From a virus (taxonomy: Duplodnaviria > Caudoviricetes), in IMG/VR virus record IMGVR_UViG_3300027732_000094, positions 1 through 28,941 of that record: a DNA stretch of 28,941 nucleotides, one strand, 5' to 3'. Under the pieces are notes generated by a model that was given only the letters and a program-made list of their open reading frames with translations, was not told the DNA's origin and did not search any database. Numbering within the stretch: the first letter of the stretch is position 1; every line of letters starts with the position of its first letter. Shown in pieces: positions 3,084-4,728 of this stretch. A program made the position numbers and the translations under genes.

Positions 3084-3581
3084 TTATAGTCTCTCAGCGA
3101 CCTTATCATATTCTTCATTAAGAAGTTCTCTCTTACCCTTCTCTTTCACTTCGATTTTCTTTGGTTTCTTGTGTTCTGGAATAATTCTTTCCAAGAATAC
3201 TTTGAGCATACCATTGAGCATCTCTGCATCCTTTACTTCAACTTGATCGTTGAGAGCAAATGAACGAGTGAAAGCACGATTGGCGATACCTTTGAATAGG
3301 TAATCAGAATCATCTTCCGTAGTGTTCCCTTTGATGATCAATTTATCACCATCAAGTTCAATATCAATATCCTGCTTACCGAATCCAGCAACAGCCATCT
3401 CGATCTGGTAATTATTCTCACCAGTTTTCTTAATGTTGTATGGAGGATAGTTAGGAATATTCTTTGTCAAATCATCATGCATCTTTGCGATGCGATTGAA
3501 CTGATCATCAAACCCAACAAAAAACTTATCAAAGTCTTTTAGATGAGCACCCCATGTCTCTGGAACAAATTTTGTAACCAT
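3084..3581 (-). CDS. hsp20: small heat shock protein Hsp20 (IbpA-like)
   Basis: NYPPYNI, EMAVAGF, YLFKGIANRAFTRSF, A...NGML..L alpha-crystallin motifs; start MVTKF at 3581 has an AGGAGA RBS. Confidence 0.95.
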   Translation of the reverse strand: MVTKFVPETWGAHLKDFDKFFVGFDDQFNRIAKMHDDLTKNIPNYPPYNIKKTGENNYQIEMAVAGFGKQDIDIELDGDKLIIKGNTTEDDSDYLFKGIANRAFTRSFALNDQVEVKDAEMLNGMLKVFLERIIPEHKKPKKIEVKEKGKRELLNEEYDKVAERL

Positions 3582-3591
3582 GTTATTCTCC

Positions 3592-3813
3592 TTATTGTTT
3601 AAATGCTTGGCGTGGATCAAATGCAAGGGCAGAAGTGCCAACTGTAGTGAAAAAATCTACAGTGGTCTTAGCCATTGTCTTAGCAAATGATTGCTGAGCA
3701 TCAATGTAAGTCTGGAGTTGGGATTTAATTTCTTCGTTTTCCACGCAGGTGTCAACGAATTTTGTTTTGATACTGCAAATAGTATCGATGGACTGATTAA
3801 TAGCTGATAACAT
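3592..3813 (-). CDS. hypothetical helical protein (possibly phasin-like)
   Basis: 73-aa ORF with an AAGGAGA RBS and an amphipathic helical pattern; family assignment tentative. Confidence 0.65.
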   Translation of the reverse strand: MLSAINQSIDTICSIKTKFVDTCVENEEIKSQLQTYIDAQQSFAKTMAKTTVDFFTTVGTSALAFDPRQAFKQ

Positions 3814-3818
3814 ATTGT

Positions 3819-3833
3819 CTCCTTTTCAGCGAG
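3819..3833 (-). promoter_or_regulatory. ROSE-like RNA thermometer hairpin sequestering the RBS
   Basis: Minus strand CUCGCU-GAAA-AGGAG: the U(U/C)GCU motif pairs with the SD leaving a bulged G, as in ROSE elements; hsp20 lies just downstream. Confidence 0.55.
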
Positions 3834-3843
3834 TAATAAAAAT

Positions 3844-3960
3844 GCTACCCCGAAGGCATAGCGGTTTTCCAGCTTACCTTATACTGGCTCGAACTTTCGT
3901 GTCGAGGGTGTAATTACACGGACGCCTTATACCGTAGCGACGAACAGCCCTAAGGTGGGA
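3844..3960 (-). ncRNA. structured intergenic RNA (manA-like candidate)
   Basis: Several stems: CCC/ACCUUA/GGG; ACGG/UAUAAGGCGU/CCGU; GUGU-AAUU-ACAC; CUCGA..GAAA..UCGAG; CCAG/UAUAAGGUAAG/CUGG; and a cUUCGg hairpin. GC-richer than its flanks. Confidence 0.6.
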
Positions 3961-3963
3961 CTC

Positions 3964-4038
3964 TTAGCGATTCATTACGTACATTGTTACTTCGAATCCG
4001 AATCGCATATCTGTTGCTGTTGGTGTTGTCCAAGCCAT
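3964..4038 (-). CDS. pqqA: pyrroloquinoline quinone precursor peptide PqqA (24 aa; not in ORF track)
   Basis: Hand translation MAWTTPTATDMRFGFEVTMYVMNR*: W-T-x-P, R-F-G-F-E-V-T-M-Y with the ExxxY core; RBS AAGGAGA 6 nt upstream of ATG. Confidence 0.95.
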   Translation of the reverse strand: MAWTTPTATDMRFGFEVTMYVMNR

Positions 4039-4104
4039 TTTATATCTCCTTAAAGTTAAGTTGTCCAAGTGGACTTATTACTTATAAGATTGTCACAGAA
4101 AACA

Positions 4105-4123
4105 CCTAATGAAAATCATTATT
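4105..4123. promoter_or_regulatory. Fur-box-like palindrome
   Basis: CCTAATGAAAATCATTATT matches the E. coli Fur consensus GATAATGATAATCATTATC at 15/19, with a perfect TAATGA-N3-TCATTA dyad. Confidence 0.4.
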
Positions 4124-4144
4124 CTTAGGTAGTTCTACATTTAT

Positions 4145-4312
4145 TTATGCAGCTGGAGCAGCTTCTTGAGCTTTCGCCATTTCAGCTACTTGTGGTTCAC
4201 CCTGAGATTTAATTTTATTAATTAGAGTAGCGATCTCTTCAAAAGGATGCTTACCCAAAGAACGAAGAATAGCATTTACTTCATCAACACTCAATTCAAG
4301 TTTAATATTCAT
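4145..4312 (-). CDS. hypothetical protein (55 aa; not in ORF track)
   Basis: MNIKLELSVDEVNAILRSLGKHPFEEIATLINKIKSQGEPQVAEMAKAQEAAPAA; ATGA overlap with the regA stop. Confidence 0.8.
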   Translation of the reverse strand: MNIKLELSVDEVNAILRSLGKHPFEEIATLINKIKSQGEPQVAEMAKAQEAAPAA

Positions 4313-4728
4313 TTTGATTTCTTTCCTATGTTATATTTTGGAACTAATTCCCACTGGTCTTTTTCTTTGTAAGAGACCACCTTAATTTGAGACAAAGATG
4401 CTTTCTGTTCTGCCTGTGTAGCAACTAGAATCTTTAGAAGTTCCCAGTCCTGAAGCAATCCAGCAATAGCATTTCTGCGCTCGATATCTCCATTAGTGAT
4501 ATTTGATTCTTTACCATCTAATGCAAATAATTCTTTGAAGTGTACAATGAAGTATCTACCCTGCTTATGTAAAATATGGCAAGATTGATACAGTTTGTTT
4601 TCTTTTCTGGAAGCGATCCCGATGCGGGTAAGAGTCTCACGGACTTTTAGAAAGTTGTCTGGCTCTGGCAGACTCACTTCAAGCATCGACTCTGGTGTCC
4701 AGTCGTAGTAAATCATTTCTACAGTCAT
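4309..4728 (-). CDS. regA: translational repressor RegA
   Basis: DNFLKVRETLTRIGIAS, LYQSCHILHKQGRYFIVHFKELFALDG; follows gp62. Confidence 0.97.
   Translation of the reverse strand: MTVEMIYYDWTPESMLEVSLPEPDNFLKVRETLTRIGIASRKENKLYQSCHILHKQGRYFIVHFKELFALDGKESNITNGDIERRNAIAGLLQDWELLKILVATQAEQKASLSQIKVVSYKEKDQWELVPKYNIGKKSK

Follow-up and report, generated by a model that had tools for sequence, protein, structure and literature searches.

Between pqqA and the hsp20 operon of a T4-like phage, the minus strand of the window (the whole 28,941-nucleotide stretch analyzed here) carries a short segment that looks like a structured RNA. Is it a genuine RNA, how would it fold, and what might it do at this place? 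The initial annotation described a multi-stem RNA in which one hairpin loop could pair alternatively with two repeated loops, and proposed a variant of the manA motif or a new cis-regulatory RNA influenced by pqqA translation.

The locus and its RNA family

The window covers part of the genome of a T4-like lake phage and contains regA, clamp and clamp loader, UvsW and hsp20 genes. The gene order on the minus strand is regA, a 55-aa ORF, pqqA, the RNA, a 73-aa ORF, hsp20 and rubrerythrin (Table 1). The RNA starts just after the pqqA stop codon, as initially noted, with 4 nt in between. The 73-aa ORF has no match in Pfam, PHROGs or NCBIfam; 11 related loci were identified, and in 24 of the 147 loci described below an ORF with a similar N-terminus comes after the core. 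The gene pqqA has already been reported in methylotroph phages (excerpts of PMC7678222), the host of the window's phage being only presumed, and is also carried by three cultured Methylophilales phages. A blastn search of 3780-4100 against cultured phages matched pqqA only, in those same three phages, and the RNA core alone gave chance matches only.

Table 1. Coordinates of the RNA, its parts and its neighbors in the window.
Feature	Position	Strand	Basis or remark
Conserved RNA core	3959-3869, 91 nt	minus	comparative analysis
P1, 5' hairpin with conserved CCUU loop	3948..3959	minus	92% of cells paired
Pseudoknot 1 (predicted): stem 3947-3944 with 3935-3932; loop 3941-3936 with 3926-3921	3921..3947	minus	pair counts
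Pseudoknot 2	3888..3920	minus	tree-aware covariation
Self-complementary 8-mer: U3916-A3911 (plus G3917-C3910) around AAUU	3910..3917	minus	covariation
ACC triplet, 5' strand of pseudoknot 3 (partner GGU 3878-3876)	3907..3909	minus	pair counts
Terminal hairpin D (5-bp stem; GUAA at the end of its 9-nt loop)	3869..3887	minus	100% paired
ROSE-like element, separate from the core	3819..3862	minus	hairpin 3862-3844; UCGCU 3832-3828 with SD 3823-3819 predicted
pqqA, 24-aa PQQ precursor peptide, neighbor outside the RNA	3964..4038	minus	PF08042, E 5e-10; TIGR02107 above cut-off
73-aa ORF, first gene downstream of the RNA	3592..3813	minus	without known family
hsp20 (IbpA-like small heat-shock protein)	3084..3581	minus	PF00011, phrog_432, NF008013

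Contigs from RNA libraries of three studies span the RNA site, one of them identical to the window over 3432 to 4624; these are assembled contigs and not records of transcription, transcript ends or levels. A late-promoter-like TATAAGTA at 4086-4079 is no evidence of a promoter, because one-mismatch sites do not exceed expectation (39 against 46.5). A terminator-like site was looked for at the core and not found. A freshwater-2 match over the pqqA leader (4036-4089) is weak (20.2 bits, E 1.1); it stems from the ribosome-binding site and is probably due to chance.

Homologs were collected from IMG/VR with a 17-nt pattern of the 5' end (about 390 stretches, 119 among the matches listed) and two patterns of the terminal hairpin (about 130 and 330 stretches, 120 and 119 among the matches listed). 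The 333 parsed matches contain at least 147 distinct cores, 137 with a layout like that of the window and ten with other middles. These counts describe the sample only, because the search sets are limited in size and pattern-biased and the parser demanded CCUU. Among 66 untruncated loci found without CCUU selection, 63 have CCUU by eye, and the other three are without the module. For the alignment, 64 representatives with less than 92% identity to each other were used.

No Rfam 15 family covers the core, or the minimal module described below, at gathering score in the window and 46 loci, including manA and wcaG, the families named by the initial annotation. At E<=10, the region 3600-4200 also gave no credible match over the core, with wcaG, riboswitches and ribozymes included. 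No bacterial copy was found with the family model R1 below E 0.085 among the 120 listed of about 360 GTDB pattern stretches. Searches of the openly accessible literature returned no published description of this RNA. Its sequence strings had no or unrelated matches in the PMC10085705 supplement and did not occur in the searched parts of the PMC10690425 supplement, whose 10,006 candidates may still include it; excerpts of PMC12191101 do not mention it. Folding energy alone does not set the segment apart from random sequence (z = 0.15; 107 of 200 shuffled versions reach an equally good fold), and the evidence for a real RNA is comparative rather than energetic. On this comparative evidence, the segment belongs to a real, uncatalogued phage RNA family, which agrees with the initial view of a new structured RNA upstream of the hsp20 operon.

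Predicted fold and covariation

The fold model consists of the 5' hairpin, three pseudoknots, a mini-stem around AAUU (3917-3910) and the terminal hairpin. In the 64 representatives it pairs 93.4% of 1783 cells, compared to 32-45% in slid controls, and double changes occur at 19 of its 28 pairs. Covariation was assessed by our own R-scape-like, tree-aware G-test with 40 simulated alignments. Ten helix pairs reached E<0.05, all in the 3' half, and the test revealed a pair missing from the drawn model, C3901-G3894. Four non-helix pairs were also flagged among D-stem columns fixed by two of the search patterns. Because these patterns fixed the other D-stem columns (pairs 85-103 and 89-99 partly), only the free D pair 87-101, which changes on 11 branches, counts fully. 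P1 and pseudoknots 1 and 3 were not significant: they hardly vary, and the tree shows a single origin of the ACC/GGU form. At the level of sequence comparison, covariation supports the 3' half only.

In pseudoknot 2, CGU 3920-3918 is paired with ACG 3900-3898 and CUCGA 3906-3902 with UCGAG 3892-3888, while C3901-G3894 forms across the bulged U3893. Six of its column pairs (54-72, 66-84, 67-83, 68-82, 70-81 and 71-78) are below E 0.05, and on 7-17 branches each both sides have changed. Pseudoknot 3 is ACU/AGU or ACC/GGU in all 137 cores (136 by parser, L275 by eye), with a single change on the tree (E 1.25). The minimal module has a third state, CG/CG; pseudoknot 3 therefore occurs in three Watson-Crick states across families. 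In the 5' half, P1 shows a C-G/U-A change in 8 of 64 representatives. The stem of pseudoknot 1 is 97% paired and its knot 80% in the MAFFT register; in a pairing-maximizing parse, five of its six positions are paired in 95-109 of 109 and the A-U/U.U position in 66 of 109, and a few U-A and A-U swaps add support. Many unpaired bases are invariant across the core family.

The pair flanking AAUU in the 8-mer is among the strongest signals (U-A, C-G or A-U in 64 of 64, changed on 13 branches, E<0.03). The center is AAUU in 111 and GAUU in 18 of 137 cores and self-complementary in 129, and no compensated change was seen in it among the 137. For three variants, a duplex energy near -5.6 kcal/mol is predicted. 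These data agree with a mini-hairpin as well as with a dimer contact, the latter being unlikely in our judgment.

The letters on which the initial annotation relied are all present on the minus strand: CCC-ACCUUA-GGG (3959-3948), UAUAAGG (3931-3925 and 3883-3877), CCAG/CUGG (3887-3869), a 12-nt palindrome (3919-3908) and the UUCG hairpin (3862-3844). Both end hairpins were confirmed by the pair counts of Table 1. The stem between them fared differently: the proposed ACGG/CCGU hairpin has no double change in its four pairs, and its A-U is kept in 23 of 64. Of the proposed GAAA-capped stem, the outer helix CUCGA/UCGAG stands, whereas the inner pairs exist only in 11 and 33 of 64, and the tetraloop is not confirmed, as the loop's ACG pairs upstream instead. 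The palindrome is full-length in only 32 of 137 cores, with at least 6 nt of it kept in 111.

The central proposal was that the ACCUUA loop switches between both UAUAAGG loops, with pqqA translation or PQQ as a possible influence. In the window the complementarity is perfect over 6 and 5 bp (-4.7 and -3.0 kcal/mol), the pqqA stop lies within 4 nt of P1, and of the six pairs with the terminal loop, three persist in 191 of 192 cells. Against this, neither kiss is compensated. The kiss of P1 with the first loop pairs 74% of cells. For the terminal loop, the decisive pair C3954-G3878 is kept in 11 and broken in 53 of 64, and G3878 is paired with C3907 in 64 of 64, as C-G or U-A. The commonest variant would gain only -0.4 kcal/mol. 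The loop repeat is no family trait, as 12 of 137 cores carry TAAGG in each of the two loops. Of the 147 cores, 2 have pqqA 4 nt upstream (one core being identical to that of the window), and two more, with a different middle, have it 63-64 nt upstream. The switch is contradicted for the family by these comparisons, a role for it being extremely improbable, and neither switching nor PQQ sensing is needed for the RNA. What remains of the terminal kiss, 3 bp of UUA/UAA, is nearly invariant and never compensated; a short tertiary contact between the P1 loop and the terminal loop is possible.

Genomic settings and separable modules

Most cores, 113 of 147, precede hsp20 or an ORF of the 73-aa type (108 by peptide regex, 5 by eye). 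Eight adjoin a tRNA (ARAGORN), 11 stand before another gene with its own TAAATA promoter motif directly behind the core, and one is truncated. The core lies close to upstream ends: 53 of 147 cores follow an ORF stop at a distance of 0-9 nt, 50 follow TAAATA within 30 nt, and seven have a tRNA within 25 nt. Some cores start a few nt after a tRNA CCA end, and some are situated between tRNAs.

A ROSE-like element follows the core in 103 of 147 loci (regex match). With the short ROSE-like thermometers (RF02523; excerpts of PMC3669281), the segment 3862-3819 of the window shares two hairpins, U(U/C)GCU opposite the SD and a downstream hsp20 operon. Unlike known ROSE elements, it precedes the 73-aa ORF, one ORF before hsp20, and the likeness applies to this neighbor only, not to the 91-nt core. 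The pairing of UCGCU with the SD is part of the MFE fold and stays there from 10 to 45 °C, only its extension being lost above 10 °C. The ROSE_3 model scores 13.0 bits in the window and 34.9 in the best homolog (L040), below the gathering score of 43. Heat control of translation is likely left to this ROSE-like element.

The two elements can be apart. L075 and L003 (same contig), L083 and L055 have a core with no ROSE-like element or with one set apart from it, and one contig with the window's core has a gene between the two. In 47 of 147 loci (L019, L025, L030, L112 and others), the 110 nt upstream of the core hold a further module, which begins with a GGGAUGGGA hairpin and includes an H-type pseudoknot (by eye), often with CCA at its end. 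The window has no such module; in L006 and L007 it is found by itself ahead of the ROSE-like element.

The 5' half (P1 and pseudoknot 1) also occurs before other 3' parts, for instance in the cultured Limnohabitans phage DC31, after tRNA-Tyr. In L012, L028, L086, L101 and L117 it is directly followed by degenerate tRNA-like sequence, with no 3' half. In L020, L022, L050, L066, L077, L085, L089 and L092 another 3' part follows, seen by eye as two hairpins whose loops could kiss (GGC/GCC) and a short terminal hairpin with an AAAGU loop. Variants of 170-190 nt in or near tRNA arrays (L078, L126, L128, L373 from DC31, L554, L577 and L583) have the 5' half first, a shared CGCCA or UGCCA loop, and a D-type hairpin last.

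The 3' part is found separately as well. Among cultured phages, Carvaje and Snitter carry hairpin D with a CGUAA loop, and DC31 has the hairpin at a second site with a GUAA loop. The CGUAA hairpin pattern matches about 1700 IMG/VR stretches, with 120 among the matches listed, many of them chance matches in genes. Of the 112 distinct CGUAA hairpins listed, 48 have A-N-C-G-N and a 4-bp hairpin directly before D (shuffled controls: mean 2.6, maximum 7). In this minimal module of about 45 nt, the elements are arranged like ACY, stem and D of the window and, as a rough extrapolation, the figures suggest that some 700 IMG/VR stretches hold it. In 28 of 48 modules, the base following CG and the one preceding CGU match (permutation p 0.002, without correction for the tree). 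A stop codon lies within 25 nt upstream in 22 of 48, a terminator-like hairpin follows in 19, and CCTT lies upstream in 13; the two upstream genes tested are pstS and a phosphate porin. Rfam returned no family on twenty minimal-module loci. In Klebsiella phage Carvaje (L494:1660-1720) and Erwinia phage Snitter (L495:1650-1695), short ORFs resembling tmRNA tags lie near the D hairpin, with weak tmRNA model matches of 21.7 and 25.8 bits, below the cut-off.

Candidate functions and related RNAs

Comparison establishes the family, its contexts and its 3' pairings, and from these we infer every functional step. The reading that we prefer, with a probability of roughly 0.35, is that the core acts as a nuclease-resistant block, which would stabilize its RNA and survive as a small stable RNA. 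Swappable modules would fold into one compact three-pseudoknot structure. The loop of the terminal hairpin would pair back to the triplet before the preceding stem, leaving 3'-to-5' exonucleases no easy path, and the 5' hairpin could cap the 5' end left after a promoter start or tRNA processing. In the window, the protected RNA may be the upstream pqqA message or the leader of the hsp20 operon. Bacterial 3' barriers, such as REP hairpins, stall exonucleases. The same principle as proposed for the core is known from the xrRNAs of eukaryotic viruses, whose compact knotted fold stalls an exonuclease (excerpts of PMC12191101); xrRNAs, however, block 5'-to-3' enzymes and form a ring, whereas the core has no Rfam match and no evident ring fold.

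A block fits because the fold is kept while the neighbors vary, because transcript and gene ends are hugged, and because no expression platform is visible. It is further supported by the single mutually compatible fold, the rival helices showing no compensation, and by the 3' half standing alone behind stop codons (pstS, phosphate porin). Several findings argue against it: the invariant unpaired bases exceed the needs of a passive barrier and would equally suit a ligand, protein or catalytic site, 19 of 48 minimal modules already have an intrinsic terminator behind them, and P1 and pseudoknots 1 and 3 did not reach significance on the tree. Loci of the L012 type, with a 5' half but no 3' half, also make a single job for the entire RNA less certain.

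The invariant loop bases are also what a trans-acting small RNA might display, a decoy, scaffold or protein-binding RNA cut from longer transcripts and perhaps dimerizing through the 8-mer. The position of cores after tRNA CCA ends and between tRNAs (the DC31 copy follows tRNA-Tyr), the resemblance to orphan stable RNAs of T4/T5 tRNA clusters, and the 8-mer center, self-complementary in 129 of 137, point the same way, as do the kissing-loop cages reported for manA RNAs and the first rank of the rnaD 5' end in T4, both treated below. However, 77% of the cores share one cis position, the lack of compensation in the 8-mer center is also what an intramolecular mini-hairpin predicts, and the rnaD score is within background, with both family models missing it. 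Such an RNA is possible, at somewhat lower odds than the block. A riboswitch-like element sensing a ligand or protein for the adjacent gene would account for the compact multi-pseudoknot core with its invariant bases, mostly located in a 5' leader, and for the minimal module after phosphate-uptake genes in several loci; it is nonetheless unlikely, as no overlap with an SD or terminator is seen by eye, the ROSE-like motif being what pairs the SD, the neighboring genes share no pathway, and positions in tRNA arrays and 3'-UTRs do not fit. TRNA-adjacent HDV-like theta ribozymes exist in phages. The size of the core, its pseudoknot density and its place directly behind tRNA and stop-codon ends would suit a small ribozyme that separates the upstream tRNA or mRNA from the downstream RNA by self-cleavage or processing. 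This is slightly less likely still, given that no Rfam ribozyme matches at E<=10 or E<=1, that the helix order is by eye unlike HDV-like, twister, pistol and hammerhead ribozymes, and that the modules occur separately.

Among known phage RNAs, the manA motif (RF01745) is an orphan structured RNA of T4-like phages, located before ibpA/hsp20-type genes (excerpts of PMC2864571). The core shares this position in 113 of 147 cases. The manA RNA measures 192 nt against 91 nt and is a marine and cyanophage RNA, whereas the core family is mostly found in pqqA- or hsp20-bearing T4-like contigs. Its covariance model (gathering 55.2) has no match in the region or record at E<=10 or in 20 homolog loci at E<=1, and the consensus text and first alignment rows of the PMC2864571 supplement are by eye unlike the core. 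The idea of a manA variant was accordingly dropped. According to excerpts of 10.64898/2026.07.01.735769, manA RNAs form kissing-loop cages of 8, 10 and 60 copies.

Because some cores adjoin tRNAs, ten annotated stable RNAs of T4 and T5 were compared. The function of T4 rnaD (species 2 RNA) is unknown according to excerpts of PMC9697503, PMC3014915 and PMC12685909. Like some cores, rnaD and the T5 stable RNAs are small RNAs in tRNA clusters right after a CCA end, and the loop of the rnaD 5' hairpin and the following hexamer resemble pseudoknot 1. In contrast to the core, rnaD is without P1, has a tRNA-like end, and its CGUC pairs with the 3' end in 66 of 66 cells, with two single-sequence compensations. 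With a family-trained descriptor, built after rnaD had been viewed, the rnaD 5' end ranks first in the T4 genome at 11.4 bits, against a background of 10.8 and 30-35 for true members. Neither family model, R1 or R2, matches rnaD, the sequence-only R2 being weak; a whole-genome search was blank too, although it is insensitive and misses DC31's own copy. Across 11 rnaD homologs, the knot pairs are formed in 4-7 (MAFFT register, four rows apparently shifted by one) and the closing stem in 66 of 66 cells, CGUC fitting the closing stem better than the knot. A kinship of the rnaD 5' knot with pseudoknot 1 is thus rather improbable, a lead and not a finding.

A broader reading, which we hold to be speculative and rather improbable, is that of a combinatorial RNA toolkit shared by tailed phages, with a universal 3' knot, exchangeable 5' pseudoknots, an activity of a new class, and a 5' knot kin to rnaD. 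Hundreds of phages without close kinship would then carry the 3' knot (triplet, hairpin and GUAA-loop hairpin), both after genes of host origin and within tRNA arrays, with an exonuclease block, self-processing or a multimeric decoy as candidate activities. The family is widespread, well supported and missing from Rfam, and at 45-91 nt it is fit for probing, crystallography and nuclease assays. The minimal module is the simplest test object, with DC31, Snitter and Carvaje as cultured carriers. If the barrier to decay is true, it would explain the persistence of host-derived messages (pstS, porin, pqqA and hsp20) and offer a portable stabilizer; if the tie to rnaD is true, a long-standing orphan RNA becomes testable by comparison. 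Relatives of rnaD (L496:1554-1672), which have no Rfam family, are present in about 740-830 cultured enterobacterial phage records, Vequintavirinae included, and have a covarying 5' stem and closing stem.
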